DNA from: a virus
Taxonomy: Duplodnaviria; Caudoviricetes
Virus record (IMG/VR): IMGVR_UViG_2927713021_000002
Span: 3,647 to 67,646 of that record
DNA length: 64,000 nt
Strand: one strand, 5' to 3'
In this document: in pieces, positions 1,869 through 64,000 of the stretch
How the letters are laid out: the number at the start of each line of letters is the position of its first letter
Numbering within the stretch: position 1 is the first letter of the stretch
The notes under the pieces: model-generated
The model's database searches: none
What the model saw: only the letters and a program-made list of their open reading frames with translations
Told to the model about the DNA's origin: nothing
Translations under genes and position numbers: made by a program

Positions 1869-1881
1869 GGCTTACTCCTGC

Positions 1882-2296: not shown

Positions 2297-2306
2297 GGGC
2301 TTCTCC

Positions 2307-2816: not shown

Positions 2817-2829
2817 GTAAATGCGCTCC

Positions 2830-3996: not shown

Positions 3997-4081
3997 AGAT
4001 TCTCCAGATATGAAAAGGCCCCGCGTCAGCGAGGCCATTAGGGGTACAGCAGAAAAGAAAACGCCCCGTCGGTGCGGGGCG

Positions 4082-4510: not shown

Positions 4511-4513
4511 TTC

Positions 4514-7031: not shown

Positions 7032-7032
7032 A

Positions 7033-8237: not shown

Positions 8238-8337
8238 GGCGCACCTCCAGGCGAGGGCCGGACAGCAATGGTCGAGCCCCATGGGCAGGTTTGCATAGCA
8301 GTCTCCTGACAGAAAAAAACCCGCATCGGCGGGTCTG

Positions 8338-8898
8338 TTAATGTTTGTGATTGGCCGTGTTGCCGGCCGTGTCGATGATCTGGCCGCCACCATTGATGTC
8401 GCCGCTGACCACCAGCGGGCCCTTGATCGAGACGCTACCGGTGAGGGTGATCGCCGCTGCGTCAAGGCTGATGGCGCCGTCGCTGACCTGCAGCGTGCTG
8501 CCCCCGACCCGGATGCTGGCGTTGCCGGTCGGCAAGTGGATGTCGTAGCGCCGTGCTTGCCAGTCGTAGGCCAGTGAGCCGCCATCGGCGAAATGCCACA
8601 CTTCAAGATGGTCACGGTTATCTGGTGGGCTCCCCGCATTGCCATACAGTCCCGGGAAGAACGTACCCTGGGCTGGCTCGCCGCTGGGACTCAACAGGAC
8701 GCCCTGCTCGCCAATACTTGGCGCGCGCCAGTGGCGGGCCTGGCCTGCCGCCAGTGCATGCCAGCGCAACCAGGCGCTGCTCCAGCCGCTGCCATCCGAG
8801 ACCCGTACCCGCGCAGCGGCAGGATCCACCGCCACTACGCGGCAAGGGATGACCAGGCAGGCCAACATGCGGTCGTGCATTGAACTTGAGTAACTCAT
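8338..8898 (-). CDS. Baseplate assembly V / spike protein
   Basis: WRAPSIGEQGVLLSPSGE, FADGGSLAYD, C-terminal H-x-H (NHKH). Confidence 0.9.
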   Translation of the reverse strand: MSYSSSMHDRMLACLVIPCRVVAVDPAAARVRVSDGSGWSSAWLRWHALAAGQARHWRAPSIGEQGVLLSPSGEPAQGTFFPGLYGNAGSPPDNRDHLEVWHFADGGSLAYDWQARRYDIHLPTGNASIRVGGSTLQVSDGAISLDAAAITLTGSVSIKGPLVVSGDINGGGQIIDTAGNTANHKH

Positions 8899-9395
8899 GA
8901 CAGATCCTGTGCAGGGAAGTAATTGCCCTCGTTGCCAGGGCCGGTTTCCGGGCTGATCCCCAGCATCAACTGCCCAGGCGGCTGGTCGGGCCAATCCCAG
9001 CGTGGCTCGCCGAGCAGCACCGGCTGGTCCCAGCGCACCGTCCAGCCACTACCGTCGAACTGAGCCTCGACATTGCGGCTCGCTTCGACGAAATCCAGCT
9101 CCCAGAACTGCTGGCGCAGCACGTCGATCAATTGCGCTGCCAGGAGGCTGCCTTGCAGGCGCGCCTCGGCCTGGGCGCTATCCGCGGCGGTAATGTCCGC
9201 CTCGAAACTGGCGAGCAGCACCGAGCGTCCATCGCGGGGGGCAGGGTCGGCCGTCATGCGCACCACGCCATGGCGCAGTGCGGGTAATGCCGTGCTATTT
9301 CCTACAGATGAATATGCATCGACTGACGCAAGTTCCGGGATCGCCTCACGAATGGTTGCGGTTACTGCCGCGTGTAAGGTTGTCAGTTCGCTCAT
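8895..9395 (-). CDS. Conserved tailocin protein between holin and spike (collar/tail-completion-like)
   Basis: Position and translational coupling to V; MSELTTLHAAV...WTVRWDQPVLLGE. Confidence 0.6.
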   Translation of the reverse strand: MSELTTLHAAVTATIREAIPELASVDAYSSVGNSTALPALRHGVVRMTADPAPRDGRSVLLASFEADITAADSAQAEARLQGSLLAAQLIDVLRQQFWELDFVEASRNVEAQFDGSGWTVRWDQPVLLGEPRWDWPDQPPGQLMLGISPETGPGNEGNYFPAQDLS

Positions 9396-9397
9396 GT

Positions 9398-9745
9398 TCA
9401 GGGCTCCTCTCGCACATCTGCCCGCGCGCCGTCGCGCAGCCCAAGCCGCTTGGCTGCCCAGCGTTCATAAAGGCCGATGGCAACATCGGCTCCCGCCATC
9501 GCAGTCAGACAGCCAAAGGCGCTGGCGCTCCAGATCGACATGCCGCTGGCGTACAGCAGCATCACCGTCGACACGCCACAGATCATGCATGCCCCGGAAC
9601 GCAGCGCCAGCCGGCGCACCAGCGACCAGCCTTTTGCTCCAGCCTTGTCGGCCCGCCACATTTCGCCGGAAACACCGCCCAGCAACGCCAGGACGATTAC
9701 CAGCCAGAGCGGCATTTCCAGTAACGCTTGTTGCTCGTTCGTCAC
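9398..9745 (-). CDS. Tailocin holin
   Basis: 115 aa with three hydrophobic segments and a basic C-terminus (MTNEQQALLEMPLW...GEMWRADKAG); first gene of the tail operon. Confidence 0.85.
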   Translation of the reverse strand: MTNEQQALLEMPLWLVIVLALLGGVSGEMWRADKAGAKGWSLVRRLALRSGACMICGVSTVMLLYASGMSIWSASAFGCLTAMAGADVAIGLYERWAAKRLGLRDGARADVREEP

Positions 9746-9808
9746 TGCCCTGTCTCCTGTGTGATGCCCGCCGACGACTGTCGACAGGTCGGTTTACGCT
9801 TAAACTCG

Positions 9809-10045
9809 GCATTCCAAAAAGCCCGCCATCGCCGGCTTTTCAGTAATGCGTGGTCAACCGCAGGCCACTACTGGTGACACCTGCGGTCATGTCCAAAACT
9901 GTTAACTCCGACCGCGGCCGCCTGCCCGCCGGAAAACTGTTCGTGGTGCTTTACGCTGCACACCCGGGCCAGTTGCCAACCCTCTGAACAGTTGAGGCCT
10001 GTTCATCGCTGCCTTTGCAACAACCGGTTTCTACCCGGCTTGAGA
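9809..10045 (-). ncRNA. Highly structured 5' leader of the tailocin operon ending in a long hairpin
   Basis: Consecutive stems: AGCCGG/CCGGTT, TGAACAG/CTGTTCA, GGGTTGG/CTGGCCC, ACCGCAGG/CCTGCGGT, GCATTACTGAAAAGCC/GGCTTTTTGGAATGC. Confidence 0.55.
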
Positions 10046-10048
10046 AAC

Positions 10049-10077
10049 ACGTTATGCGCATATGCATATGCAGTCAA
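10049..10077 (-). promoter_or_regulatory. Sigma70 promoter of the tailocin operon with operator in the spacer
   Basis: TTGACT-17 bp-TAACGT. Spacer contains TGCGCATATGCA (10055-10066), repeated with one mismatch at 10110-10121 and 10969-10980. Confidence 0.6.
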
Positions 10078-10165
10078 TGCATTTATTCATAGAATTTCAC
10101 ATGAGGATTTGCGGATATGCATGAAGGCCATGCATCACGCTGGCTGTAGGATTTTTCTGCAGGCG

Positions 10166-10190
10166 AAAAAAAACCCGCCGAAGCGGGTTT
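10166..10190 (-). terminator. Intrinsic terminator after the repressor gene
   Basis: AAACCCGC-TTCG-GCGGGTTTTTTTT on the minus strand. Confidence 0.85.
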
Positions 10191-10207
10191 GTTCTGACGA
10201 TGTTCAC

Positions 10208-10945
10208 TCAGCGGGCGTACATCCCCCACCAGAAGACGTGGCCCAGCAGGCTGATCTGCTCATCCTGCATCTGCTGGAAAGTGTAGTCCTCGTCGGGGTG
10301 CTCATCGCGGTTGAAGCTGCGCAGGCGGATGCCGGTTGGCAAGCGATACACCTGCTTTACACGCAACTGGCCGTTGTGATTGATGGCATAGAGGTCGCCA
10401 TCGACGATATCGCCGATCGCACATTTACCGGTATTGACCCCTACCGTGGCGCCATCACGCAGCACCGGCAGCATGCTGTTGCCGCGCACGGTCACGCACT
10501 TGGCGTTGTCGAACTGGACGCCATTGTGGCGCAGGCTGCGCTTGCCGAAACGCAGGCGCGCACGCTCGCTCTCTTCGATGACGAATCTTCCTGATCCTGC
10601 TGCCAACTCGACCTCGCGAAGAAAGGGCACGCTAACCTCGTCGTCCTCGACGGGTGTTTCATCGTCCCACAGGCTGATATCGCTCATGTCGGCATGACCA
10701 TGAGCCGGCTGCGCCGCTTCACGCGACTCGCCGAGTTCGGCGCGGCCACGTAACTGGTCGGTGCTGACGGCGAAATACTCGGCGATTTTGGAGACGTGTT
10801 TGTCTGACGGATCAACGATCTTTTCGCTGAGAATCCGCGAAAGCGTGGATTGAGGAACGCCCGTGCGCCGGTGCAGCTCCGTCGGAGACAGGCCGTGGCG
10901 GTCGAGCAAGGTCTTGAGTACGGAGGCTACGTTGCGTTTTTGCAT
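10208..10945 (-). CDS. prtR: PrtR-like XRE/S24 repressor of the tailocin
   Basis: N-terminal HTH (PTELHRRTGVPQSTLSRIL), autocleavage LAAGSG, catalytic GNSM and RVKQ. Confidence 0.85.
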   Translation of the reverse strand: MQKRNVASVLKTLLDRHGLSPTELHRRTGVPQSTLSRILSEKIVDPSDKHVSKIAEYFAVSTDQLRGRAELGESREAAQPAHGHADMSDISLWDDETPVEDDEVSVPFLREVELAAGSGRFVIEESERARLRFGKRSLRHNGVQFDNAKCVTVRGNSMLPVLRDGATVGVNTGKCAIGDIVDGDLYAINHNGQLRVKQVYRLPTGIRLRSFNRDEHPDEDYTFQQMQDEQISLLGHVFWWGMYAR

Positions 10946-11121
10946 AAGCCGCATAATGCAACGAGTTGTGCGCAAATGCAATTGATGCGGCAGCGCACCG
11001 GCCAGCCTGCGCTTGGCAGAGCGCGGCAATCCAATGGCGTATCGTCCCTGCATCGCCGGGCAAAAGTCTGTAACATTGCCGGTTTCAAAATCGCCCACCG
11101 AATCACGCTGTAAGGCCCCGA

Positions 11122-11163
11122 ATGTCTGACCTCTCCGCGCACACTCCAATGATGCAACAGTAG
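11122..11163 (+). pseudogene. mutS': Stranded native 5' end of mutS (MSDLSAHTPMMQQ*)
   Basis: Matches the MutS N-terminus HTPMMQQY; truncated by TAG at the att junction; preceded by GCTGTAAGGCC SD region. Confidence 0.9.
11146..11162 (+). repeat. attL core CCAATGATGCAACAGTA
   Basis: Identical 17-mer at 61448-61464 (23 bp with one mismatch if extended to CACAC). Confidence 0.92.
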
Positions 11164-11211
11164 ATGCTTGATCAGTGCATAGGGCGCGCCGTTACTGGGC
11201 TGCGCGGCCAT

Positions 11212-11289
11212 GCTGTCTAATACAGATTGCGAGCTTTCCGCGAGTTTCGACCAGTAAAGTCGCGAAGCTATCGAGCAGTATTAGACAGC
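11212..11289. repeat. Imperfect 78-bp palindrome containing putative integrase arm sites (TGTCTAATA)
   Basis: GCTGTCTAATAC (11212-11223) / GTATTAGACAGC (11278-11289); TGTCTAATA recurs at 61392-61400 near attR. Confidence 0.7.
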
Positions 11290-11336
11290 TAAACCCCCCT
11301 CCTCCGGCGTCCTGCCGACCGAATCCCCAACCAAAA

Positions 11337-11630
11337 CTACAACGTCCGACACCACCACGACTGCGCATACAGCACGCCGTCAACCTCCTCCACACCATTG
11401 ATGTTGATGCCGAGCTGGGCCATGCCATTCACCTTCGCATCGTGCAGACGCGGGATGACGTCGGCGCCGGGCGAATGGGTGAAGACCCAGGCCTGCGTGG
11501 ACACCCTGCCCAACGGCGCGCTGTGGTGATCGCCGATGTGGATGTCTGCCTTTAGGGCCTGGATCTTCCCCAGCTGATCAGTCGGGATGGCCACGCCCAG
11601 CTTGCGCCGCCGGACGATCAGGAAGTACAT
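11337..11630 (-). CDS. Hypothetical protein coupled to the UmuD-like gene
   Basis: 97-aa ORF overlapping the end of the upstream S24 gene. Confidence 0.7.
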   Translation of the reverse strand: MYFLIVRRRKLGVAIPTDQLGKIQALKADIHIGDHHSAPLGRVSTQAWVFTHSPGADVIPRLHDAKVNGMAQLGININGVEEVDGVLYAQSWWCRTL

Positions 11631-11992
11631 GACATCGGCCCGTGGCTGCGCAGGCTGTAGGTAACCACGCCCCAGACAGAGAACTCGTCACCCTCCATGA
11701 TGAACCGCGGCGCGTACCGAGGATTCTCCGAGCGCAGCACGATCTGCCGGCCAACATAGTCGAGCCGCTTGCAGACTGGCTCGCCGTTCACCGCCGCGAT
11801 GACGATGTGGCCGGCCCGCGCATCAATCGCCTTGTCGACGATCGCCACGTCCTCGTCGAAGATCCCCGCACCCTGCATGCTGTCGCCGTCGATCCTGACC
11901 AGATACACATTGGGCGCATGCACCTGCATCAGTTCGTCGAGGGATATGGCCTGCAGGTCTTCGACGTATTCGAATGGGTTGGCGGCTGTCAT
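11618..11992 (-). CDS. UmuD'-like (HumD-like) S24 peptidase
   Basis: GDSMQGAGIFDED, VNGEPVCKRL, WGVVTY. No N-terminal arm or cleavage dipeptide; starts near the YVE motif. Confidence 0.8.
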   Translation of the reverse strand: MTAANPFEYVEDLQAISLDELMQVHAPNVYLVRIDGDSMQGAGIFDEDVAIVDKAIDARAGHIVIAAVNGEPVCKRLDYVGRQIVLRSENPRYAPRFIMEGDEFSVWGVVTYSLRSHGPMSCTS

Positions 11993-12005
11993 GCTTGGCT
12001 CAATA

Positions 12006-12021
12006 CTGTATATAGATACAG
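12006..12021. promoter_or_regulatory. LexA (SOS) box
   Basis: CTGTATATAGATACAG (CTGT-N8-ACAG), 13 bp upstream of the UmuD-like ATG. Confidence 0.88.
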
Positions 12022-12051
12022 TATCTTATGGCAGATTGTGGCTTACGACAA

Positions 12052-12594
12052 TTACCGGTCAGCGGGCGCGCTCATCCCGCCCATGATCGACTCGCACGCC
12101 AGCCCAGCTATTCGACTTCGCTCAAGCGCTTCCGCGAGGCTTCCCGCCATTCGGTCAGCGTCTTCAAGCAATCCCCCGAGCACCATGACGGGAGAGGTTC
12201 CTGTCGCGCGCTGCTGGGCAGCGATGGTACTGCAGGTTGCTGCTCGACCGTCGCGCAGTCGGGCGATTTCCCCGCGCAGGCCGACAGAGCCAGACTCAGC
12301 AGTAGCAGCGCGGTCTTTGAGTTTCGCGATAAGCTCGTCACTTTCCCTTCCCTTTTCGTCTGCCAGCGCTTGCCGGCGCTGCTCTTCGGTTCTGGCCTGC
12401 GCCGCGGCACGCCGGTCGCGCTCGGAGACCTCCAGCCGGTAACTGGCCAGGCCCTGCTCTGCTTCGGCGGTCGCGGCCCGGGCATCTGCCGCCGCTCCCT
12501 CGGCAATCACCACCCGGTACTGCTGGCCACCGGCAACCAGCACCAGCGCGATCAGCCACCAGCACCAGGCCGGCGCCGAGCCGAGCCAGGTCAT
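12052..12594 (-). CDS. Rz-like i-spanin
   Basis: N-terminal TM, coiled-coil, C-terminal AGLACE; follows endolysin. Confidence 0.82.
   Translation of the reverse strand: MTWLGSAPAWCWWLIALVLVAGGQQYRVVIAEGAAADARAATAEAEQGLASYRLEVSERDRRAAAQARTEEQRRQALADEKGRESDELIAKLKDRAATAESGSVGLRGEIARLRDGRAATCSTIAAQQRATGTSPVMVLGGLLEDADRMAGSLAEALERSRIAGLACESIMGGMSAPADR
12108..12341 (-). CDS. Rz1-like o-spanin lipoprotein embedded in Rz
   Basis: GTG start, signal KTALLLLSLALSA-C lipobox, Pro-rich; nested out of frame in Rz. Confidence 0.72.
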   Translation of the reverse strand: MTSLSRNSKTALLLLSLALSACAGKSPDCATVEQQPAVPSLPSSARQEPLPSWCSGDCLKTLTEWREASRKRLSEVE

Positions 12595-13217
12595 GCCAGC
12601 ACCCGCACGGCGATGTCGTACAGCGCTTTTCGCTCAGCAGCGCCATGCGGCACGCGCCCAGGCTTGCCGGTATTGATGATGCTGCCGATGTCCTGGATGC
12701 GGCCGGCGTCTGCCAGCTCGTTAAGCCCGTGCTTCGCCCACCACCACGCAGCGGACTGCGCAGCGTGCTCGGCCTGCTCGAGCAGTTCCGGCTGATCCTC
12801 TAGCGGCAGCCCCAGCGCGGCGCCGGCTGCCTGGTAGTTGTCGCGCCCGGTGAGCTGGATCAGCCCGCGACCCCGGTACCGCCAGCCATCCCCCGATGAT
12901 TCGGGACCATTACCCATGCGCCCGCTGTAGACACGATTGGCGATTTTCTCCGGCTGGCGGGCATATGCCGGCGCAGTCTGGGCGGTGAACCTGCTGGGCC
13001 AGGTACGAACCAGCGCGTCGGCGCTGTAGTTGAGGTTCTCGACCAAAACGCGCAGCTGCCCAGATTCGTGGCCGATCTGCGCCAAGAAGGCGGCGGCGCG
13101 CAACCGGCTGTCGATCTTCCAGCGGACCATGGCTCGGTTTAGCGCAGGCAAAAAAATGCCCGCTACGGTGCGGGCTTTTGGCAGAACCTGCAGCAGCTGC
13201 TGCTCGGTGATGGGCAT
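12591..13217 (-). CDS. Endolysin, glycoside hydrolase family 19
   Basis: AAFLAQIGHESG, ENLNYS, YRGRGLIQLTGRDNY, SAAWWW. Confidence 0.92.
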   Translation of the reverse strand: MPITEQQLLQVLPKARTVAGIFLPALNRAMVRWKIDSRLRAAAFLAQIGHESGQLRVLVENLNYSADALVRTWPSRFTAQTAPAYARQPEKIANRVYSGRMGNGPESSGDGWRYRGRGLIQLTGRDNYQAAGAALGLPLEDQPELLEQAEHAAQSAAWWWAKHGLNELADAGRIQDIGSIINTGKPGRVPHGAAERKALYDIAVRVLA

Positions 13218-29835: not shown

Positions 29836-30837
29836 TCACACCGCCTGACTGGTCTTCCGGAGGGTATATTCGGCAACACACCTGCAGCGGATACGCTCAC
29901 TGAGCGGAGCGCCAAGCGATGTGTCACACGGAAACATCAGCATGGCGCCGGCCGGAGAGATGAATGCCTGGCCTGCCATTACGGTCTGTCCGTTCATCTC
30001 GCCGTGGGTGCGCCGCTCTCGGCCATCCATCGTGGTCTTCCACTTCTTGGCGAAGGTGTATTGCCCATTGCTGCGCGCCGTGAGCTGCTGCCACCCCTCC
30101 TCTCGGCCCTTGTTGTAGGCCTCGGCAGTGTTGGTCTGTGCCAAAGCATCGGCGTAGGTGCTGAGCAGGCGCTGCGCATATGCCGTGGTGGCGCGGTCGA
30201 TGGTTGTCTTGGCGAGCGACTTTCCCGCCTCTATCGCCTCGCGAACCGCTGCATCAAACGCTGGGTCGCGGCGCACCCTGGTCAGGTAGTTGCGCATATT
30301 GCCCGGGTCGCCACTGGCGAGCTGGTCGCGCGCACGCTCGATTGCTTCGGCAGAAGCGCCGCTGAGACCAACGACCCCGCCAGTGCGGCGCCCGGTCTGC
30401 CGGCTCAGCCGTCCTGCCAAGTTCAGCGCTACGGTGCGCGCCGAGTCGCCACGGTCGCGACCCATCGACAACACTACACGCACCGCATCCGCCTGGTCAC
30501 GAGCCACCTGTTCCCGCAGCGCAGAAGCTTGGGCGCTCAGGAATTCACTCACGCTGCGATCGCTCATGTCGATCTCGCGGCGAACAACAGGGATGATGAT
30601 CGCCACCAGTTCCTTGCTGGCCCCGCGGGCATACGCGGCGCGCAGGCGTTCCAGCAGCACGGCCAGCAGGCCCAGCGATAGGATTTCAGCGATGCGATCC
30701 TCGTCATTGTCGTCTACGGCCTGCTCAAGCTGCGCGAGGCTGATGTAGCGAACGGTCTGGGCTACCTGCTCGAGGTAGGCCTGCTTGGCCTCGCCCTCCA
30801 GCCGCTTGATCTCGTCCTCTACCTCGGAGGCCTTCAT
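29836..30837 (-). CDS. Head morphogenesis / minor head protein (Mu gpF / SPP1 gp7-like)
   Basis: KKWKTTMDGRERRTH, MLMFPCD, IRCRC. Confidence 0.8.
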   Translation of the reverse strand: MKASEVEDEIKRLEGEAKQAYLEQVAQTVRYISLAQLEQAVDDNDEDRIAEILSLGLLAVLLERLRAAYARGASKELVAIIIPVVRREIDMSDRSVSEFLSAQASALREQVARDQADAVRVVLSMGRDRGDSARTVALNLAGRLSRQTGRRTGGVVGLSGASAEAIERARDQLASGDPGNMRNYLTRVRRDPAFDAAVREAIEAGKSLAKTTIDRATTAYAQRLLSTYADALAQTNTAEAYNKGREEGWQQLTARSNGQYTFAKKWKTTMDGRERRTHGEMNGQTVMAGQAFISPAGAMLMFPCDTSLGAPLSERIRCRCVAEYTLRKTSQAV

Positions 30838-31358
30838 ACGACGAACACCGCCACACCGCACAACCTGTTACTGCGCAGGAGCGGGGCCACCAACTCATCC
30901 ACTACGGTCAACACCGGGCGCGTCGGGACGCCGCCATCAGGCGTGGCCGTGGCCTGGTATTCGATCTCCAGCACGTCGACCTTCTGCCGCTTTATGGCCT
31001 CGGCGGCTACGTAGTCAGGGCTCAGGCTGCCAGGGTTCACCAGTTCGCGCAGAGCCGCCTCGTAGGTGGCCCGCTCAATCTCCGCTGGCACCTCGTCAGG
31101 CGGGATGGCCGCGCCTTCGTTGTCCGTTGCGCCGGTGCGGGGCCACTGGAGTTCCTGCGCCCGTCCACCGGTCTTCACGCCGGAGAACATCGACTCCCAA
31201 CGCCCGCAGCTGTTCTGCTGCTGGTACTTGCCGTCGATGTAGGCCGATGCCCTGATCAGCGCCGCCTGCTTCGCTTCGTCACTGCCGGCCCAGGCAGCAT
31301 TCGCCCGGGCAGAGTGGTAGGCGTCGGCGCCTGCGACGGATCCGTAGAATTCTGGCAT
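30834..31358 (-). CDS. Head-tail adaptor (DnaT-like family)
   Basis: YGSVAGADAYH...ALIRASAYID...QELQWPR...KVDVLEIEY. Confidence 0.75.
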   Translation of the reverse strand: MPEFYGSVAGADAYHSARANAAWAGSDEAKQAALIRASAYIDGKYQQQNSCGRWESMFSGVKTGGRAQELQWPRTGATDNEGAAIPPDEVPAEIERATYEAALRELVNPGSLSPDYVAAEAIKRQKVDVLEIEYQATATPDGGVPTRPVLTVVDELVAPLLRSNRLCGVAVFVV

Positions 31359-33269: not shown

Positions 33270-34403
33270 TTAGGCCTGGGCCGGGCGGTGGGCGGTTTGC
33301 ATGTCAGCGATCATCTGCAGGCGAGCCTTTTCAGCGTCGTCGCCGGTGGTCTTGCTGTCCTGCTGGATCATGTGCTGGCGGAAAGGGTCGCCGGCCGGGT
33401 TCTTCGCGGCGTCCTCGACCAGAAGGTCGAAGCGAGCGTCGATGTAGGCCTCGGTCTTGCCAGCAATGGCGGCGTCGCCCAGCTTGGCGATGACCACGGC
33501 CTTGCGGATCTCGGCATCGCCCTTGCCGGTGTAGTCAGCGTCAGCGATGGACTTGGCCTTGGTGACCAGGTCAGCGCGCGCCTGAACGCGCTTGTCGAGA
33601 TCCGCATCGCTGAGAACAGCTGCTTTCAGCTTGGTGATCTCGTCGTCCTTCTTGGCCAGCTCGCTGTCCTTGGCCGCCAGGGCCACAGCGTGCGCGTCGG
33701 TCAGGGTTTTGATGTTGACGCCCGCGTCGGCCAGCTGCTTGGTCAGCTTGTCGATCGCCTGGGCGCCCTGGTCGGTGGTTTGAACGGACAGGCCATCAAC
33801 AATGACCGTGCGCAGGGAATCAGCCATTTGATGGCCTCCTTTTGGGGGTTTGGGGTCGTTGTCACCGATGCGAAGCTTTTCGCCGCCTCGAGCGCGATGC
33901 TCCAGGCTGAGGTGATTCATTTTCATGGGCCCGAGGTAGACATCGAAGTGCTCGCCCTCGGGGGTTTGCCCATCCTGGAACACGACTTCAGCGCCGTACC
34001 CCATGGAGAGCTCGCGTTTGCCGGCCTCGTAGTCCTCGATGGCCTTGGCGTCCATCAGCACCAGCGGCACCTTGACGAACTCGCCATCGCGGACGACTTC
34101 GCCGCCGGTCTGGCCGATGGCGTGGTCTTTCCAGTTCTTGGCGTTGACGCCCTCGCCGCCAGGGTGGCCGTTGGTCATGGGCCGGTAGGCGTAGGACTGC
34201 ATGGCGTCCTTGTGGAAAACCGAGCTCTCCGGCCGGTACACCTTGACGATGGGCTTGTCGCGCAGGCCGTGCTCGTTGTCCGGGTCGATCTCGGTGCCCA
34301 GGTAGTCCTGAATGCCGGTGCGGGCGACCCTGGCCTCGGCCACCAGGTAACCGTCAGCCGTCCGCCGCACATTGGAAGCGGTGACAGAGTCTTGAAGGAT
34401 CAT
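33270..34403 (-). CDS. DUF2213 prohead protease/scaffold
   Basis: TADGYL, ARTGIQDY, GKRELSMGY, NHLSL..RARGG; C-terminal coiled scaffold. Confidence 0.85.
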   Translation of the reverse strand: MILQDSVTASNVRRTADGYLVAEARVARTGIQDYLGTEIDPDNEHGLRDKPIVKVYRPESSVFHKDAMQSYAYRPMTNGHPGGEGVNAKNWKDHAIGQTGGEVVRDGEFVKVPLVLMDAKAIEDYEAGKRELSMGYGAEVVFQDGQTPEGEHFDVYLGPMKMNHLSLEHRARGGEKLRIGDNDPKPPKGGHQMADSLRTVIVDGLSVQTTDQGAQAIDKLTKQLADAGVNIKTLTDAHAVALAAKDSELAKKDDEITKLKAAVLSDADLDKRVQARADLVTKAKSIADADYTGKGDAEIRKAVVIAKLGDAAIAGKTEAYIDARFDLLVEDAAKNPAGDPFRQHMIQQDSKTTGDDAEKARLQMIADMQTAHRPAQA

Positions 34404-34418: not shown

Positions 34419-36212
34419 TTACTGCAGGTCTTCGAAGATCTCCGGCCCGAACTCGATCTTGCCGCGGTACGGCTCGACTTTGCTCAGGTCCAGCTCGCCG
34501 GCCTGGTAGGTGATGGTTACGTGCGGCTGGTACTCTTCGAAGTCCCAAGACGCCCCAGCCTCGCGGATCTGCATGTGTCGCCAGGCCAGTTCGGACGAGT
34601 TGAACAGCAGCACGACAGCGCCGTCGCTGCCCAGCGGCTCGACCAGGCGTGCGCCGCCAGGGGCGACGGTTAACCCGCCGTCCTGCCGACTGCCCCAGTC
34701 ACCGCCAACCTTCATCCAGTCCAGCGCCTGCCGGCTGTATGCGATGGTGACGTGCAAGTCTTCGGCCGGGACGGTGGTGTCGAAGCCTTGGGACTTTGCC
34801 CATGCCAGGATGTCGGCGCCGTTGGTGACCTTGCGCTGCACGTACAACGGCCGCGGGGCTGCGTCGCCGAGGGAGGCGGTGCGCGACGGGAGCTTGTTGC
34901 CCTCCTCGTCGATTTCCGGATCCTCCTCATCCGGCAGTTCGGCGCCGAACTTCTTGATGGCCGCCTCCAGCCCGGGCATGACGCTCTGCTCGACAAGCAA
35001 GTTGACCGAGGCTTGCGACAGGGCATCCTCAGGGAAGAGCCCCGCATCCTTGAGCACCTTGATCGTGTCCGCCGTGGTCTTGCCGATATCGGCGCGCTCT
35101 TTGGCGGTCGGTTGCCAGAGCGGCGCCCAGGTGTAATGGATCTCTTTCGGGCGATCACCCAGAGCCGAGCGGATGAGGCACTCGTCAAGCACACCCATGG
35201 CAGGCTTGATGTCCAGCTTCTGCCGGGAGGCGACGTTGTCGTAGTAATTTCGGGTGTTCTCTTCTCCGTTCGAGCCCAATCCGGTCGACGACTGTCCAAA
35301 CATACGGGTGATCGGGACATCGAACGCCCCGGCCACGCCCTGCTCTGTCTTGGCGATGACATCAGGAAGCGTGCTGAAGCTGGCCGACTTGGAGGTGTGG
35401 GTCTCCTGCCCGTCCAGTATCAGCGTGCCGTTGATGCCCTTGGCAGTTGCCGCCAAGCGCAGACGCTCGAGCAGCTGACGCTCGTAATTCTTGTCCTGCA
35501 TGCTCGTCATCAGGTTCGGGATATTGATGACGTCGATCTTTGCCTCGTAGACCAGGCTGACCACGTTGGCCACGGTCTCGTCGTAGCGACGCACGGCAGG
35601 CAGCGCAGCCAGCAGCACCGAATCACCCCAGCCGAAGCCGGCACCCATGGCTAGCTCTGGATCGGGGTGTGGCACGCCTACGAAGATGACCAGCCGGGAT
35701 GGGTGAATCTCAAGCTCAGAGCCTGGCAGCCGGTAAGCCTTGGGCTTTCCGTATCGTGGGCTTTGCGGGTCTTGCTCGATCTCAGTAGCCGATAGCTGTC
35801 GGCGAGTCATCACGGTCAAGTACTTGATACCACCTTGACGGATTGAGTCAGGCTTTAGCTCGGTTGAAGTGTTTCGGTCGCCGGTACCGATGAATAACGC
35901 AGCGCCGCCGAACAAGCGAGACTTCAGCAGAGCCTCAAGGATCTTGCCCTTTACATTCAGCCGCTCTTCCTCGGCCTCGATGAGCTCAATCTGCTCTTTG
36001 TTGGCCTGCCAGCTGCGCCAGTTCCGGCACGCATCGATCGCTGGAATACTCACACCTTTCTGCGCAGTCCACGAACCTCGGAATGCGTTCAGCAGTTGCT
36101 GGTCGTCCATCTCCGGCACGGTGTAGTGCGAGTGGGATGACTTGTCGCGCGCAGTACCCAGTCCAGCGACAAGGTTCTGCAGGCTGTCCTTGATGAAGGT
36201 GTATGCGCTCAT
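34419..36212 (-). CDS. Portal protein (DUF1073 family) fused to C-terminal Acb1-like 2H phosphoesterase
   Basis: Portal motifs RLFGGA, IHPSRL, PITRMFGQSSTGLGS, NYYD; C-terminal ~147 aa with LHVTIAYS and PHVTITY. Confidence 0.88.
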   Translation of the reverse strand: MSAYTFIKDSLQNLVAGLGTARDKSSHSHYTVPEMDDQQLLNAFRGSWTAQKGVSIPAIDACRNWRSWQANKEQIELIEAEEERLNVKGKILEALLKSRLFGGAALFIGTGDRNTSTELKPDSIRQGGIKYLTVMTRRQLSATEIEQDPQSPRYGKPKAYRLPGSELEIHPSRLVIFVGVPHPDPELAMGAGFGWGDSVLLAALPAVRRYDETVANVVSLVYEAKIDVINIPNLMTSMQDKNYERQLLERLRLAATAKGINGTLILDGQETHTSKSASFSTLPDVIAKTEQGVAGAFDVPITRMFGQSSTGLGSNGEENTRNYYDNVASRQKLDIKPAMGVLDECLIRSALGDRPKEIHYTWAPLWQPTAKERADIGKTTADTIKVLKDAGLFPEDALSQASVNLLVEQSVMPGLEAAIKKFGAELPDEEDPEIDEEGNKLPSRTASLGDAAPRPLYVQRKVTNGADILAWAKSQGFDTTVPAEDLHVTIAYSRQALDWMKVGGDWGSRQDGGLTVAPGGARLVEPLGSDGAVVLLFNSSELAWRHMQIREAGASWDFEEYQPHVTITYQAGELDLSKVEPYRGKIEFGPEIFEDLQ

Positions 36213-37489
36213 GGATTGCTCACGTTTGCGAGTGTGTAGCCGCCCGCAATCGGGAAGCGCTGAACAATGAAGTAGCCGAGTGCGTCGACCGGGTCTTCAG
36301 TGCCGTCTTTGTTTGGTTCGCCCTTGTCGGTGTAGGCCTGCTGCTCGAGCACCCCGGTAGTGACCGGGCAATTGTCGGTGTTCACCAGATAGCGCCTGTG
36401 AGCCTCTCCGTTGAGGAGCATTGCGTTGACTGCCAGCACCCTGTCCCGAACCTCAGGGTTCGACGGGTTGACCATCACAGGGAATCCTGCGGCCCGGAGC
36501 AACGTGTGGTCGGACTCGCTACCGTTGACGCTCTTGCGGTTCTTTCCGCTGGCGTCGGGATAGACGGTGATGCTGTGTCCGGGGAAGCGCCGCTTAAGCT
36601 CTTTGATCATCGCCGGCGTATCGAACAGGCTTGTGGCCTCCTCGAGCAGCATGGGCAACCCGTCGCGGATGACGTGAATAGTTGCCGCCATCCGGTTGAT
36701 GTTGAAGTCCATGCCGACATGGAGCTGTTCGCCTGGGCGAATCGTGGCGTTGGTGTGGTTCTTGTGCCGGCAGAAGTTCGGGTAGACGCTGCCCGACGTC
36801 AGGTTGACGAACAGGCCGTCGATGTAGGCATCCACCAGGTTGGCCGGGTATGACTTGCGCAGAGAGGGAATGTAGTCCTTTGGCAGGTTCTTGGCGTTCT
36901 GCCGCGTGGACGCATGCACGATGCCGTAGAACTGGCGCTGCGTTGGATCGGCGGCCAGCTCCTTGACGAACTTGCGGTAGACCCAGTTGAAGCCCTCAGG
37001 CGTTGTCGTCACGTCGATGGTGTTCGTGTCACGGCCAGGCCATACCGTCGACATACGCGCAATGATCTTCTTCCAGGCACTGTCCGCCTTCTTGATCGGC
37101 ATGCAGTCGATCTCATCGACCAGGGCGTGCGCGATGTTGAAGCCGACGATCCGGTGCGGGTGCTCCATGCTCTTGCAGACAATGGTGCTCAGGCAGCGTC
37201 CCTTGCTGTCTCGCAGGTAAACGCGCTTGTTGCTGGCAACGATGTCAGCGAACAAGCCAAACGCCTCAGCAACGCCCGGCAGCGTGTCGTAGAAGATGTC
37301 CGTGATCTGCGGGTAGGTCGGCGCGAAGTAGCCCTGAGGAATGCCAGGGAACTCCAAGGCGTTGATGCACATCCGCACGCAGCCCACGAAGGTCTTTCCG
37401 CTGCGGTAGCCGCCCACGAACGCCATGAACTTGTTGTGCGACTTGATGAACTCAAACTGCGGCTTGTTCAGCATCAGGACAGGACGCAT
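36209..37489 (-). CDS. Terminase large subunit
   Basis: Walker A GGYRSGKT, Walker B LVDE, TTTPEG, nuclease GMDFN, YPDASG, DALGY. Confidence 0.93.
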   Translation of the reverse strand: MRPVLMLNKPQFEFIKSHNKFMAFVGGYRSGKTFVGCVRMCINALEFPGIPQGYFAPTYPQITDIFYDTLPGVAEAFGLFADIVASNKRVYLRDSKGRCLSTIVCKSMEHPHRIVGFNIAHALVDEIDCMPIKKADSAWKKIIARMSTVWPGRDTNTIDVTTTPEGFNWVYRKFVKELAADPTQRQFYGIVHASTRQNAKNLPKDYIPSLRKSYPANLVDAYIDGLFVNLTSGSVYPNFCRHKNHTNATIRPGEQLHVGMDFNINRMAATIHVIRDGLPMLLEEATSLFDTPAMIKELKRRFPGHSITVYPDASGKNRKSVNGSESDHTLLRAAGFPVMVNPSNPEVRDRVLAVNAMLLNGEAHRRYLVNTDNCPVTTGVLEQQAYTDKGEPNKDGTEDPVDALGYFIVQRFPIAGGYTLANVSNP

Positions 37490-45664: not shown

Positions 45665-46495
45665 ATGACGAAAAACTCTCGAAAGGTCCCGCTTGCTGAT
45701 TGGCAGGTGGAGGACAGCCAGCGCTTGAAGGCGCTATACAATGCGAAGCGTGCAGAGCTCGGTCTGACTCAGGACCGTATCGCTGCAGAGCTTGGCGAGG
45801 GCGTCACTCAAGGCGCAGTTAGCCATTTCATGAATGGGCGGACCGCCTTAAGCCTTCGCGCCGCCGTCGTATTCGCAAAGGCCCTCCAGGTTCCTGTCTC
45901 TGAGTTCAGTCCCAGGCTGGCGAGCGAGCTTGATCTGATGCGCGCTGTGCCGGGCGTTGGCGCTGCCGTCATTGGCGCAGCTGCGGCGATCACTGCAGCG
46001 CAGCGAGGCAACGATCATGTTTCCGCCGAAACTCCTCTTCCGGAGGGCTCAGACGAAGACGCTCTGGATGGTAAATACGCCTACATCCCTCAGTACGATG
46101 CCAGAGCAGCAGCAGGACTTGGCAGCGAAAACCCGCATGTGGAGATCCGCTCCACCCTCGCCTTCAAGCGCGAATGGCTGAGAGCCAAAGGGGCCAAGGA
46201 TGATCAACTGATCGTCATCTATGCCGAGGGTCAGAGCATGTGGCCGACCATCAATGACAGAGACGTCCTGCTCATCGATCGCTCTCGGTTTGAGCCTGTC
46301 GATGGCCAGGTATTCGTGCTGGCTGGCGGCGACGGCGCCATCGTGAAGAGGCTTGTTCAGGGCCCGGTTGGGCAGTGGCTATTGCGCAGCGACAATGAGG
46401 ACAAGGGCCAGCATCCGGATCGCTTCTTCTTCCGTAGCGAGGACAATGAGCACCGGATCATCGGTCAAGTGATCTGGCGAGGTGGAGACCTGTAG
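45665..46495 (+). CDS. cI: CI-like repressor (HTH + S24)
   Basis: LTQDRIAAELG..TQGAVSHFMNG, AAAG cleavage site, GQSM, IVKRL. Confidence 0.9.
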   Translation: MTKNSRKVPLADWQVEDSQRLKALYNAKRAELGLTQDRIAAELGEGVTQGAVSHFMNGRTALSLRAAVVFAKALQVPVSEFSPRLASELDLMRAVPGVGAAVIGAAAAITAAQRGNDHVSAETPLPEGSDEDALDGKYAYIPQYDARAAAGLGSENPHVEIRSTLAFKREWLRAKGAKDDQLIVIYAEGQSMWPTINDRDVLLIDRSRFEPVDGQVFVLAGGDGAIVKRLVQGPVGQWLLRSDNEDKGQHPDRFFFRSEDNEHRIIGQVIWRGGDL

Positions 46496-54844: not shown

Positions 54845-55768
54845 GTGACCACAGCAATCGACCTGTTCGCCGGCCTCGGCGGATGGAGCACCGGCGCGCG
54901 CGCCGCAGGCGTCCAGGTTCTCTGGGCGGCAAACCATTGGCCGGTAGCCGTTGAATGGCACAGCGCCAACCACCCCGACACGCAGCACGTTTGCCAGGAC
55001 CTGCACCAGGCCCGCTGGGAGCAAGTGCCAGCGCATGACATCTTGCTTGCCTCCCCCTGCTGCCAGGGCCACGCCAAGGCGCGCGGCAAGAAGTCGGGCA
55101 ACCCTGAACACGACGCATCGCGCTCGACGGCCTGGGCGCCGGTGTCGGCCCTCGAGTTCCACCGGCCGCAGGCGGCAGTGATCGAAAACGTTCCAGAGTT
55201 CACCGACTGGGTGCTCTATCCGGCCTGGCTGCAAGCGGTTCAGGCTCTGGGGTATCAGGCGGCGCCGCACATCGTCGACTGTGCCGACCTCGGAGTGCCG
55301 CAGCACCGGGTGCGCCTGTTCATGGTGCTGACGCGCAGCAAGGCGCCACTGATGTTGCAGCTGCCCCGCGAGCGGCACGTGCCGGCCGCTAGCTTCCTCG
55401 ACTTCGACGCTGGCCGCTGGTCGACCATCGACAAGCCCGGCCGGGCCCAGGCCACGCTCGACCGGGTACGCAACGGCCGCCAGCGCTTCGGCGACCGATT
55501 CATCATGCCCTACTACGGCAAAGGCTCTGGCACCACCGGGCGCGACATCAACCGGCCGATCGGCACCATTACCACCTTGGATCGATGGGCCCTGGTCGAC
55601 GGCGACCGCATGCGGATGCTCAGCGCCAGCGAGGCCCTGGCAGCAATGTCGTTCCCGGCTGAAACCCTGCGCCCGGATAACCACCGATTGACCATGCACA
55701 TGGCCGGTAACGCGGTGCCGCCACTGGCCGGCCAGAGAGTGATTGAAGCATTGATGGAGGCCGCATGA
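54845..55768 (+). CDS. DNA (cytosine-5) methyltransferase, orphan
   Basis: Motif I DLFAGLGG, IV SPCCQG, VI ENV, VIII QHRVR, X GNAV. Confidence 0.92.
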   Translation: MTTAIDLFAGLGGWSTGARAAGVQVLWAANHWPVAVEWHSANHPDTQHVCQDLHQARWEQVPAHDILLASPCCQGHAKARGKKSGNPEHDASRSTAWAPVSALEFHRPQAAVIENVPEFTDWVLYPAWLQAVQALGYQAAPHIVDCADLGVPQHRVRLFMVLTRSKAPLMLQLPRERHVPAASFLDFDAGRWSTIDKPGRAQATLDRVRNGRQRFGDRFIMPYYGKGSGTTGRDINRPIGTITTLDRWALVDGDRMRMLSASEALAAMSFPAETLRPDNHRLTMHMAGNAVPPLAGQRVIEALMEAA

Positions 55769-59351: not shown

Positions 59352-60365
59352 ATGAGGCCGCGAAAGAAGGACAGGCATCTGCCGCCGTGCATGTACATCA
59401 AGCACGGCGCCTATTACCTGGTGAGGAAGGGAAAGTGGGAGCGCCTCGACAAGGATTACCAAGGCGCGCTCCTCGCCTACGCAAAGATCATGGGCGGAAA
59501 AGGCCAGGGCGCGATGCCCAAGCTAATCGACGACGCTCTTGACTCAATGCGCAAGCGGCTGGCGGAGAACACGGTCAAGCAGTACGAGGCTGCGTCAGCC
59601 AAGCTGAAGCACCACTTGGCCGAGTTCGAGCCGCGCCAGGTGCTGCCGAGGCATGTGGCGGCTTTGAAGATGCACATGGCCGATACGCCGAACATGGCAA
59701 ACCGTGTGATCTCGTTCCTTCGGATGGTCTTTGCATATGCCCTGGAGCAGCAGCTTGTTGATTCCAATCCTTGCACAGGCATCAAGAGACACACAGAAAA
59801 GAAGCGCGACCGCTATATCACGGACGAAGAGTTTGCCGCGATCTGCGGCGCCTGCTCCCCTTACATCCGATCCATCCTTCAGATGTGCTACCTGACCGGC
59901 CAGCGCATCGGCGACGTGCTGGCAATCAAGCTTGCTGACATCAGCGACAATGGCATCGCTTTCGAACAGCAAAAAACTGGCGCAAAGCTGGTAGTGGCAA
60001 TGACGCCAGATCTGAAAAAGCTGATAGCTAGGGCGAATTCACTGCCGAGGAAGGTGCGCGGCGTCACCCTATTCTGCACGCGTGGTGGCGGCCGTCCGGT
60101 GTCCTACTCGACAGTGAAAGACGCCTTCAGAAAGGCTTGCGAAGAAATCGGTGTAGCCAGCGCGACAATTCATGACCTTAGGGCGAAGTCGTTGACAGAC
60201 ACTGACAAGCAGGGCAATGACGCACAAAAGCTGGGTGGGCATACAGATGCTAGGATGACTCAGCGCTATCTTCGGCTTCGGGAAATGAAGGTCGCTATCG
60301 GGCCTACGCTGGGGGACGAGGGGTCTGCAAGGCAAATGCGGGAAATGAAAAAGCCCCTCGAATGA
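59352..60365 (+). CDS. int: Tyrosine integrase
   Basis: TGQRIGD (R), QQKTG (K), HDLR, GH, TQRY (Y). Confidence 0.93.
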   Translation: MRPRKKDRHLPPCMYIKHGAYYLVRKGKWERLDKDYQGALLAYAKIMGGKGQGAMPKLIDDALDSMRKRLAENTVKQYEAASAKLKHHLAEFEPRQVLPRHVAALKMHMADTPNMANRVISFLRMVFAYALEQQLVDSNPCTGIKRHTEKKRDRYITDEEFAAICGACSPYIRSILQMCYLTGQRIGDVLAIKLADISDNGIAFEQQKTGAKLVVAMTPDLKKLIARANSLPRKVRGVTLFCTRGGGRPVSYSTVKDAFRKACEEIGVASATIHDLRAKSLTDTDKQGNDAQKLGGHTDARMTQRYLRLREMKVAIGPTLGDEGSARQMREMKKPLE

Positions 60366-61423: not shown

Positions 61424-64000
61424 ATGTCCAGCATTTCTGAACACACCCCAATGATGCAACAGTACTGGCGGCTGAAAAATCAGCACCCGGACCAGTTGAT
61501 GTTCTACCGCATGGGCGATTTCTACGAGATCTTCTACGAAGACGCGAAGAAAGCCGCCAAGCTGCTGGACATCACCTTGACCGCGCGCGGCCAGTCGGCC
61601 GGCCAGTCGATCCCGATGTGCGGGATACCGTTCCATTCGGCAGAGGGCTACCTGGCCAAGCTGGTCAAGCTCGGCGAGTCGGTGGTGATCTGCGAGCAGA
61701 TCGGTGATCCGGCCACCAGCAAGGGCCCGGTCGAGCGTCAGGTGGTGCGTATCATCACTCCTGGCACGGTGAGCGACGAGGCGCTGCTCGATGAGCGCCG
61801 CGACAACCTGATTGCCGCCGTGCTCGGCGATGAGCGGCTGTTCGGCTTGGCCGTGCTGGACATTACCAGCGGCAACTTCAGCGTGCAGGAAATCAAAGGC
61901 TGGGAAAATCTGCTGGCCGAGCTTGAGCGGATCAACCCGGTCGAGCTGCTGATCCCGGATGACTGGCCACGCGACCTGCCGGCTGAGAAGCGCCGCGGTT
62001 GCCGGCGCCGTGCCCCGTGGGACTTCGACCGCGATTCGGCGCGTAAGGGCCTGTGCCAGCAGTTCGCGACCAAGGACCTCAAGGGCTTTGGTTGCGACAA
62101 GCTGACCCTGGCGATCGGTGCCGCAGGCTGCCTGCTGACCTACGCCAAGGAAACCCAGCGCACCACCCTGCCGCACTTGCGCAGCCTGCGCCACGAGCGC
62201 ATGGACGACACGGTGATCCTCGATGGCGCCAGCCGGCGCAATCTGGAGCTGGACATCAACCTGGCCGGTGGCCGCGACAACACTCTGCAATCGGTCATCG
62301 ACCGTTGCCAGACCGCCATGGCCAGCCGCCTGCTGAGCCGTTGGCTGAACCGCCCGCTGCGCGACCAGAAGGTGCTGCAAGCGCGTCAGGAATCGATCCG
62401 CTGCCTGCTCGACGGCTATCGCTATGAAAAGCTGCAGCCGCAACTCAAAGAGATTGGCGACCTGGAGCGGATCCTGGCCCGGATCGGCCTGCGTAACGCC
62501 CGTCCGCGCGACCTGGCGCGACTGCGCGACGCCCTCGCCGCCCTGCCTGAGCTGCAAAATGCCATGGCAGACCTGGAGGCGCCGCACCTGGCCCGCCTGG
62601 CGGCCATCACCGGCACTTACCCGGAGCTGGCCAGCCTGCTCGAGCGAGCCATTATCGACAACCCGCCCGCAGTTATCCGCGACGGTGGTGTGCTCAAGAC
62701 CGGCTACGACAGCGAGCTCGACGAGTTGCTGGCCATGAGCGAAAACGCCGGCCAGTTCCTGATCGACCTGGAAGTGCGAGAAAAAGCCCGCACCGGCCTG
62801 CCCAACCTCAAGGTGGGCTACAACCGGGTGCATGGTTACTTCATCGAGCTGCCCAGCAAGCAGGCCGAACAAGCGCCTGCCGACTACATCCGTCGGCAGA
62901 CCCTCAAGGGCGCCGAGCGCTTCATCACGCCAGAACTGAAAGCCTTCGAAGACAAGGCGCTGTCGGCCAAGAGCCGGGCCCTGGCGCGCGAGAAGATGCT
63001 CTACGATGCGCTGCTGGAAAACTTGATCGGCCACCTTGCGCCGCTGCAGGACAGCGCCGCAGCACTGGCCGAGCTGGACGTGCTGAGCAACCTCGCCGAG
63101 CGCGCTCTGACCCTCGACCTGAACTGCCCAAGCTTTGTTGACGAGCCCTGCCTGCGGATCGAGCAAGGCCGCCACCCCGTGGTCGAGCAGGTGTTGACCA
63201 CGCCGTTCGTGGCCAACGACCTGGGCCTGGACGACAGCACGCGCATGCTGATCATCACCGGCCCGAACATGGGCGGTAAATCGACCTACATGCGCCAGAC
63301 CGCACTGATCGTGCTGATGGCGCACATTGGCAGTTTCGTCCCGGCGGCGCGCTGCGAGCTGTCGCTGGTCGACCGCATCTTCACCCGTATCGGCTCCAGT
63401 GATGATCTGGCCGGCGGCCGTTCGACCTTCATGGTCGAGATGAGCGAGACTGCCAACATCCTGCATAACGCGACCGACCGCAGCCTGGTGCTGATGGATG
63501 AAGTCGGCCGTGGCACCAGCACCTTCGACGGCCTGTCGCTGGCCTGGGCCGCCGCCGAGCGCCTGGCGCAACTGCGCGCCTATACCCTGTTCGCCACGCA
63601 TTACTTCGAATTGACGGTACTGCCCGAGAGCCAGCCGCTGGTGGCCAACGTGCATCTGAACGCCACCGAGCACAACGAACGCATTGTCTTCCTGCACCAC
63701 GTCCTGCCAGGCCCTGCCAGCCAGAGTTACGGCCTGGCGGTGGCGCAACTGGCCGGCGTACCCGGCCCGGTGATTCAACGTGCACGCGAGCACCTGAGCC
63801 GACTGGAAACTGCCAGCCTGCCTGGCGAGGCTGTAACCAGCCCAGGCAAAGCTGTGCATGACCCGCATGTCCCGCACCAGAGCGACCTGTTTGCCAGCCT
63901 GCCGCATCCTGCCATCGAAAAGTTGGGCAAGCTCGACCTGGATGACATGACCCCGCGTCAAGCTATCGAAATGCTATATCAACTGAAGAACCTGTTATAA
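61424..64000 (+). CDS. mutS: DNA mismatch repair protein MutS (first codons phage-derived)
   Basis: [37 protein letters not shown]; 858 aa, intact. Confidence 0.98.
61448..61464 (+). repeat. attR core CCAATGATGCAACAGTA
   Basis: Identical to 11146-11162. Confidence 0.92.

Follow-up and report, generated by a model that had tools for sequence, protein, structure and literature searches.

Introduction

Free-standing Acb1 is a phage enzyme directed against the signals of CBASS, an antiphage signalling system based on cyclic oligonucleotides. According to the accessible passages of Hobbs 2022 (PMC9117128), it cleaves 3'3'-cGAMP and cAAA by means of an HxT/HxT tetrad, its flexible C-terminal lid (residues 145-152) shuts over the ligand and stacks a Trp against a base, and rings of more than three bases are excluded by steric clashes. 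Acb1 belongs to the 2H phosphoesterases, and 2H domains are also known as parts of head proteins: in the accessible parts of Iyer et al. 2017 (PMC5512222), fusions that join 2H domains with a MuF or a portal domain are described that may degrade nucleotides derived from host defence, a role as RNase or in degradation of 2'-5' oligoadenylates is also considered, and such polyvalent proteins are predicted to be packaged and injected. We analysed a fusion of this kind in a stretch of 64,000 nt (the window; positions 3,647 to 67,646 of the IMG/VR provirus record IMGVR_UViG_2927713021_000002), in which a temperate prophage of the Pseudomonas type encodes a 597 aa portal protein with a C-terminal Acb1 domain.

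Our literature search for tests of a portal-fused Acb1 found none, and only Iyer 2017 addressed the fusion. The accessible text of Hobbs 2022 contains neither the word "portal" nor the word "fused", and the nine additional homologues tested there are not named in its main text.

The portal protein carries a C-terminal Acb1-family domain

Pfam profiles and an AlphaFold2 model divide the protein encoded by the open reading frame (ORF) at 34419-36212 into a portal, an acidic linker and an Acb1-family 2H phosphoesterase:

34419..36212, minus strand: whole portal-Acb1 ORF, 597 aa, stop codon TAA at 34419-34421
35058..36101, minus strand: portal core, residues 38-385 (Phage_portal_3 / DUF1073; Pfam PF06381, E 7.4e-94)
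34944..35105, minus strand: C-terminal portal crown helices, residues 370-423 (AlphaFold2 helices 370-390, 395-408 and 415-423)
34866..34937, minus strand: disordered acidic linker, residues 426-449 (LPDEEDPEIDEEGNK...; AlphaFold2, predicted local distance difference test (pLDDT) <50)
34422..34865, minus strand: Acb1-family 2H phosphoesterase domain, residues 450-597 (Pfam PF23474, E 3.3e-43)

Both profile matches are far beyond chance, and the fusion of portal and Acb1 is confirmed. An earlier note on this DNA had read the ORF as a complete DUF1073 portal followed by an acidic linker and an Acb1-like phosphodiesterase. This layout was recovered in all its parts, and the peptides quoted for it as well as two HxT motifs (H487-V-T489 and H564-V-T566) were found in the ORF. 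The span to which the note had assigned the fused domain, 34419-34862, corresponds to residues 451-597 plus the stop codon.

Membership in the Phage_portal_3 family is indicated by the profile match and also by the portal fold with clip, stem, wing and crown. The full-length model matched the portal of cyanophage Pam3 (8hds_A; E 3.7e-33, TMt 0.76, where TM is the template modelling score, 43% identity), and the E217 portal (8fvh_O) was a further structural match. As judged only from the solved Pam3 homologue, the protein would form a dodecameric ring at one capsid vertex. The model, which was built on an alignment of 68 sequences, had a mean pLDDT of 89 and showed two confident modules on either side of the low-confidence segment 426-449. 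Among the 68 aligned homologues, which all carry the fusion, this segment is highly variable: residues 421-440 had a column identity of 0.25, and the stretch aligned to residues 400-455 ranged from 34 to 125 residues in length. The boundary between linker and domain is marked by a near-invariant DAxPR motif, and the domain begins with DAxPR-LYV.

The architecture is already catalogued, and the window protein is an ordinary member of it. All 120 best homologues of near-equal length (63-93% identical, from Pseudomonas) contained both Pfam domains, and for many of them the sources give the name "anti-CBASS protein Acb1 family protein" or "phage portal protein". The profile PHROG 146 ("portal protein") matched residues 6-588 (profile positions 22-577 of 587, E 1.3e-145) and covers the fusion from end to end. 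The expectation that database names might already reflect the fusion was therefore correct. The domain was also found in 33 records of cultured phages, in features annotated as portal or head protein; these comprise the Pseudomonas phiPSA1 group, 17 Rhizobium phages, Synechococcus phages, Pam3, and Sinorhizobium, Aminobacter and Rhodobacter phages. The portal gp3 of Pam3, for which a cryo-EM structure exists (8HDS), carries the same C-terminal domain (E 1.8e-36).

Linker and Acb1 domain form an optional, recombining cassette

The distribution of the domain was followed in 75 loci with a window-like portal, 8 from species genomes and 67 from IMG/VR. Three loci with partial portals and one running off its contig were left out; many of the remaining 71 are close relatives and not independent. 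The cassette was present in 47 of the 71 loci (portal ORF of 593-610 aa) and missing from 24 (438-453 aa), so that the fusion is not obligatory for this type of phage. Among the loci with a portal body at least 78% identical to that of the window, 43 had the cassette and 14 did not. The related portals without the domain, some of them 87-88% identical to the window protein in their N-terminal part, ended with a short acidic tail. The boundary is exact, as seen for two loci, L028 without and L036 with the cassette: their DNA is homologous up to "...LPDEE", then 16 codons in the former face 166 codons (linker and Acb1) in the latter, and homology resumes at a shared final EELDP, where the TGA overlaps the ATG of the protease gene. 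In the cultured phages Kintu, Silvergun, CUB19 and RHph_N28_2, portals of about 50% identity end at 436-481 aa and are directly followed by the next head gene. Linker and Acb1 domain are clearly an optional cassette with an exact insertion/deletion boundary, a polymorphism that is evident despite the relatedness of the loci, and the cassette is dispensable for portal function.

The cassette recombines independently of the portal body. In 59 of the 120 near homologues identity to the window protein was 87% over residues 1-425, 20% in the linker and 68% in the Acb1 domain, while 40 others showed the opposite pattern with 57% in the portal body, 81% in the linker and 93% in the Acb1 domain. The switch lies at about residue 420-426. 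In the same manner, one locus (L010) was 90% identical to the window in Acb1 and 95% in the N-domain of the protease, compared to 61% in the portal body and 35% in the capsid protein.

The prophage family has two types of DUF2213 protease N-domain in circulation, with about 42% identity between them, and the cassette was seen only with the window type, which was present in 47/47 loci with Acb1 versus 10/24 loci without it. The loci listed for the two types are the window (33270-34403) and L012-L015, L046, L053, L057, L061, L069-L072, L077 and L078. We did not count this association as a functional link that would indicate processing, since the genes are adjacent and the loci related. In a Pseudomonas relative (L011:7821-9452), three ORFs of about 138, 126 and 340 aa lie between the portal-Acb1 gene and the protease gene, which suggests that the portal-protease junction is a hot spot for accessory genes.

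The constant position of the domain could also be explained by a structural role. It is always found at the portal-protease junction, and in 40/47 fused loci the portal stop overlaps the protease start (ATGA); the domain might thus aid oligomerisation, recruitment of scaffold or protease, or DNA retention without being an enzyme, or it might be an inert remnant. Portals of the same family function without it (24/71 loci and the four cultured phages), the domain sits on a disordered tether and is not packed against the portal, and its catalytic residues, which a non-enzymatic function would not need, are invariant or nearly so (see below). We consider such a role highly improbable.

The domain has the Acb1 fold and catalytic residues but lacks the lid

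The Pfam Acb1 match (PF23474) extends over residues 455-597 and scored 147.3 bits when the whole protein was searched and 152 bits with the domain taken by itself (cut-off 27). When the domain was modelled alone, pLDDT was 93.5 (92 for its first block). A Foldseek search with this model returned Acb1 of Erwinia phage FBB1 as top match in the PDB (7t26 and 7t27, comprising apo and product-bound structures, TM 0.72-0.79, 28-29% identity; for 7t26 E 2.8e-8 and TM 0.74/0.79). Sequence and predicted fold together support the assignment of the C-terminal domain to the Acb1 family, and the kinship claimed in the earlier note stands. The positions of interest are:

34839..34847, minus strand: L456-Y457-V458 (alignment A5 with T4-like Acb1 proteins)
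34746..34754, minus strand: first catalytic HxT, H487-V-T489 (read directly from the DNA; aligned to the first HxT of 7t26)
34515..34523, minus strand: second catalytic HxT, H564-V-T566 (read directly from the DNA; aligned to the second HxT of 7t26)
34422..34448, minus strand: truncated C-terminal end GPEIFEDLQ, residues 589-597 (lid segment with stacking Trp absent)

Both HxT motifs align between the FBB1 chain 7t26 and the window protein (E 1.6e-11). The catalytic His and Thr residues and the Tyr of LYV are invariant or conserved in at least 90% of the 68 fused homologues: L456, Y457 and H487 are invariant, and H564 is conserved in at least 90%. In free-standing Acb1 (T4-like and Erwinia phage proteins) the residue aligned with Y457 is the base-stacking Tyr of LYV (Y12 in FBB1 numbering), and the pattern LY..HxT..HxT was present in 259 of 270 collected proteins. 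E594 aligns with a Glu located six residues before the lid Trp of T4-like proteins, at a position that varies (E, A, Q, K) among relatives. By its offset to the FBB1 numbering, E594 may correspond to the Glu that contacts the adenine N6 (E141 in Hobbs 2022).

Two other features of the ligand site are different. No aromatic residue of the window protein aligns with the mid-domain stacking residue (position 74 in Hobbs 2022); a 7-residue insertion, APGGARL, is found there, and the fused clade has an invariant G-G-x-R inside this insertion where T4-like proteins carry an aromatic. The second feature is the end of the protein, whose truncation at ...GPEIFEDLQ does not appear in the earlier note. 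In alignment A5 the window protein stops at Q597, three residues short of the aligned lid Trp, to which a Trp conserved in many fused relatives (...EELxxDW...) corresponds. In line with this, the Pfam match reaches only profile position 138 of 144, compared to 143 of 144 in the homologue P0133. The lid is missing from 40/47 loci with the cassette, its aromatic residue is kept in 7/47, and most of the distant fused relatives retain the Trp. The absence of the lid is a lineage trait, apparently linked to the way in which the domain joins the last five residues that belong to the portal itself.

A lid hidden downstream, to be reached by read-through or frameshifting, was considered and rejected: the TAA is followed by 15 nt and then the ATG of the protease gene, and no lid-like sequence was found. 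An internal start that would yield a free domain was likewise dismissed. There is no Met between M412 and the domain, and TTG (L456) and GTG (V458) showed no obvious Shine-Dalgarno sequence by eye.

These differences raise the question whether the lidless PGGxR portal clade acts on something other than the di- and trinucleotides of CBASS, such as larger cyclic oligoadenylates, nucleotides with 2'-5' linkage or 2',3'-cyclic phosphate, or LigT-like RNA ends. The element that closes over the ligand is lost, in a family from which steric clashes are said to exclude rings of more than three bases (accessible text of Hobbs 2022), and the invariant G-G-x-R insertion is specific for the clade. RNase and 2'-5' oligoadenylate roles were weighed in the accessible part of Iyer 2017, and the free-standing form falls under PHROG 755, whose label is "RNA ligase". 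The weak matches to LigT_PEase and 2_5_RNA_ligase2 point in the same direction, but both are below their cut-offs, and LigT_PEase reached only 18.5 bits (cut-off 23.3) compared to 147 bits for the Acb1 profile. The same holds for the fold: E. coli LigT and the phosphodiesterase of Burkholderia phage BCSR5 (9q2y) were the next matches, but TM was about 0.58 to LigT versus 0.74-0.79 to Acb1. A literature search for the function of the BCSR5 protein found no paper. The Tyr of LYV is kept, as is a Glu that may correspond to the adenine-contacting Glu, and the head module showed no partner gene for an RNA ligase. Since the lid Trp is present in 7/47 loci and in most of the distant fused relatives, the clade as a whole looks like ordinary Acb1. 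We therefore regard a different substrate as rather unlikely.

The portal-fused domain probably acts in the producing cell

We favour the view, with a probability of roughly 0.6, that the portal-tethered Acb1 is a late-expressed counter-defence enzyme directed against cyclic oligonucleotides and acts mainly in the producing cell. The two HxT motifs would catalyse metal-independent acid-base cleavage of the 3'-5' bond in cyclic di- or trinucleotide defence signals, with 3'3'-cGAMP and cAAA as candidate substrates by analogy with Acb1 of T4 and FBB1, and loss of the signal would silence CBASS-type effectors. Since the domain belongs to the portal polypeptide, it should be synthesized when the late head genes are expressed, at one copy for each portal subunit. 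It is predicted to hang by a disordered tether of about 25 residues from the crown side of the portal, facing the capsid interior. Its main work would be done on unassembled portal subunits and on procapsids, which we assume to be porous to small molecules, and would fall into the stage when virion assembly proteins appear; the enclosure of 12 copies per head would be a by-product. Co-timing of Acb1 with the late genes is plausible, and bioRxiv 10.1101/2023.05.21.541620 reports in its title that type I CBASS can be evaded through mutations in virion assembly proteins.

The earlier note had gone further and proposed that joining the enzyme to the portal concentrates it where heads are assembled. 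This part of its interpretation found no support here, while the protein family, the temperate lifestyle and the database names did. The substrates are freely diffusing small molecules, and because the portal C-terminus is directed towards the capsid interior, the geometry speaks for an enzyme enclosed in the head more than for one working at the assembly site.

Several observations weigh against the favoured view. We know of no assayed member of the portal-fused clade, and the domain is only 29% identical to FBB1 Acb1. The 7-residue PGGxR insertion replaces the aromatic site of T4-like proteins, and the lid Trp that stacks on the base in the FBB1 complex is absent, so affinity or substrate range may differ. 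A Pfam match to SMODS (CD-NTase) was not found in the 67.6-kb provirus record, nor in any of eight Pseudomonas genomes with related prophages; there is thus no local sign of CBASS pressure, but with a single Pfam model and so few genomes this result is uninformative. Finally, these data are compatible with action after delivery as well as before assembly.

Domain partners and possible delivery with the virion

Action after delivery would require that the domain is packaged. In such a scenario the portal serves as a capsid-targeting device: the 12 head-enclosed domains are cut off by the neighbouring prohead protease and ejected with the DNA, so that the next host receives a ready-made enzyme before phage gene expression. 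This is compatible with action in the producing cell, and evidence comes from the partners of the domain. A search of the domain against 1.84 billion cluster representatives gave 2066 matches at E <=0.001. Among the best 150 of these 2066 matches, 106 had a window-like portal N-terminal part by BLASTP, and Pfam partners were tallied for the 48 long or odd members of the best 150. Acb1 was found in all 48. Its partners were portals of three families (Phage_portal_3 in 26, Portal_Mu in 5, Phage_portal in 1) and prohead proteases (Peptidase_S78_2 in 2, DUF2213 in 1), all of which are proteins that end up inside proheads. Further domains follow downstream of Acb1: ADPrib_exo_Tox (7), ART (3), ART-PolyVal (1), ChaB (3), Zeta_toxin (2), NUDIX (1) and PBECR3 (1). 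Most of these are typical of injected effectors, and the syntax is that of the polyvalent proteins, for which 2H-MuF/portal is explicitly listed (Iyer et al. 2017, PMC5512222, accessible part).

Packaging would also fit the accessible passages of the Pam3 paper, which give the order of portal parts from inside to outside as barrel, crown, wing and stem, followed by the clip, and place the C-terminus on the capsid-interior side. The model of the portal in Pam3 virions covers 442 of its 621 residues and does not include the Acb1 part, but a flexible tether would equally account for a domain missing from a symmetrised map. Processing by the protease might be read from the near-invariant DAxPR at the linker-domain boundary and from the strict association with one protease type (47/47 versus 10/24 loci); DAxPR may, however, merely belong to the fold, considering the pLDDT of 92 in the first block of the domain, and for adjacent genes in 71 non-independent loci plain linkage is possible. 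In lambda and Mu the head protease trims the portal protein, a possible precedent for such processing. To pass the tail channel, a folded 16-kDa domain would need to be unfolded, and 12 early molecules may matter little if CBASS fires late. Taken together, we rate packaging and delivery as a possibility that clearly ranks behind action in the producing cell.

A combined scenario, in which the lidless PGGxR clade is a capsid-internal enzyme that is freed by the protease at DAxPR, ejected with the genome and, for want of the lid that restricts ring size in T4-type Acb1, also able to accept larger or different signals (e.g., cyclic oligoadenylates of type III CRISPR), appears quite improbable to us.

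Two further arrangements were observed. In the metagenomic proteins P0130, P0241 and P0143 the Acb1 domain is located N-terminally on an XkdF/S78-like prohead protease instead of at a portal C-terminus; the same domain thus attaches to whichever gene flanks the portal-protease junction. In the T4-like Escherichia phage Mizar (L002:293-1067) a free-standing acb1 lies directly upstream of an ipI homologue, whose product is annotated in that record as internal virion protein I, a packaged and injected nuclease inhibitor.

Genomic surroundings and host

The portal-Acb1 gene is part of a head operon on the minus strand with the order terS (DUF2280), terL, portal, protease, cement protein (E217/Pam3-type), major capsid protein (PF09950), adaptor (Ad1-type) and MuF-like protein. 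Further genes of the element include tape measure, lambda-J-like tail genes, a CI-like repressor, replication genes, a DNA methyltransferase and an integrase:

36209..37489, minus strand: large terminase, overlaps the portal start (Pfam Terminase_6N and Terminase_6C)
33270..34403, minus strand: head-maturation protease / scaffold, 15 nt after the portal stop (DUF2213, E 1.2e-45; PHROG 530 "head maturation protease", E 5.5e-100)
45665-46495: CI-like repressor
59352-60365: integrase

The MuF-like head morphogenesis protein (29836-30861, 341 aa, PHROG 3517) is encoded downstream of the adaptor gene, away from the portal, and has no extra effector domain. The early region contains the gene of the DNA methyltransferase (PHROG 116, 54845-55768), which may also serve the prophage in counter-defence.

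Integrase, CI-like repressor and tail genes identify the element as a temperate siphophage of the Pseudomonas type that is integrated beside mutS, as the earlier note had assumed for the lifestyle. The mutS gene (61424-64000) encodes all five MutS domains, adjoins the integrase gene and continues past the end of the window, by which it is truncated. Since the integrase lies just upstream, mutS marks the right-hand host flank.

To the left of the siphophage, a second tail cluster of the myovirus type occupies positions 1-13217 of the window:

2830-4329: tail sheath
4514-6436: tail-collar fibre
7033-7914: baseplate J
10208-11149: S24/HTH (helix-turn-helix) repressor
12591-13217: chitinase-like lysozyme

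Its site is beside mutS, and it resembles the R-type tailocin clusters that fluorescent pseudomonads carry at their mutS locus. The 67.6-kb "provirus" record may therefore hold two elements.

Comparison with known systems

As the architecture is catalogued, the window adds one more ordinary member. Its useful part is a natural experiment: prophages with portal bodies 87-88% identical to that of the window occur with or without the cassette, at exact boundaries. Such pairs could separate the effect of portal fusion from the mere presence of the enzyme in counter-defence and, together with pairs with and without the lid, offer a practical route to the meaning of the fusion; they also bear on the question whether virions contain an anti-CBASS enzyme. 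Should delivery by the virion be shown, the known packaged anti-defence proteins would extend from anti-restriction, for which the T4 internal proteins and Alt are examples (cited in the accessible part of Iyer 2017, PMC5512222), to anti-signalling.

Compared to free-standing Acb1 (T4 gp57B; FBB1, 7T26/7T27), the window domain shares PF23474, the 2H fold (TM 0.74-0.79), both HxT motifs and the Tyr of LYV, and a Glu near the C-terminus may also correspond. It differs by its low identity (29%), by the 7-residue PGGxR insertion, by the missing C-terminal lid with its stacking Trp, and by being tethered to a portal, whereas free-standing Acb1 is a stand-alone protein of about 150 aa.

The portal gp3 of Pam3 has the same two-domain layout, with 45.7% identity in the portal part and 46.6% in the Acb1 part, and the Pseudomonas phages phiPSA1, MR15, psageK9, psageB2 and PSA-2T possess two-domain portals that are 82.1% (portal) and 66.7% (Acb1) identical to the window protein. 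Pam3 and the phiPSA1 group also share the head module with E217/Pam3-type cement protein, PF09950 capsid protein and DUF2213 protease. Pam3 is a myophage, in contrast to the window prophage with its sipho-type tail. The 442/621 residues modelled in the Pam3 structure do not include the Acb1 part, and the accessible passages of the Pam3 paper do not mention the C-terminal domain.

Portals without the domain (L012-L015, L018, L026-L028 and others; Kintu, Silvergun, CUB19 and RHph_N28_2) resemble the window protein in a portal body of up to 88% identity, in the start of the acidic tail ("...LPDEE") and in the neighbouring genes, but end after 438-453 aa, or 436-481 aa in the four cultured phages. 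The polyvalent proteins of Iyer, Burroughs, Anand, de Souza and Aravind (2017) likewise unite an effector and a virion-targeting portal or MuF domain in one polypeptide, and relatives of the window domain add ART, Zeta, NUDIX and PBECR domains. In contrast to these, the window protein is a minimal form that consists of a portal and one effector, and the prediction of 2017 predates the biochemistry of Acb1.

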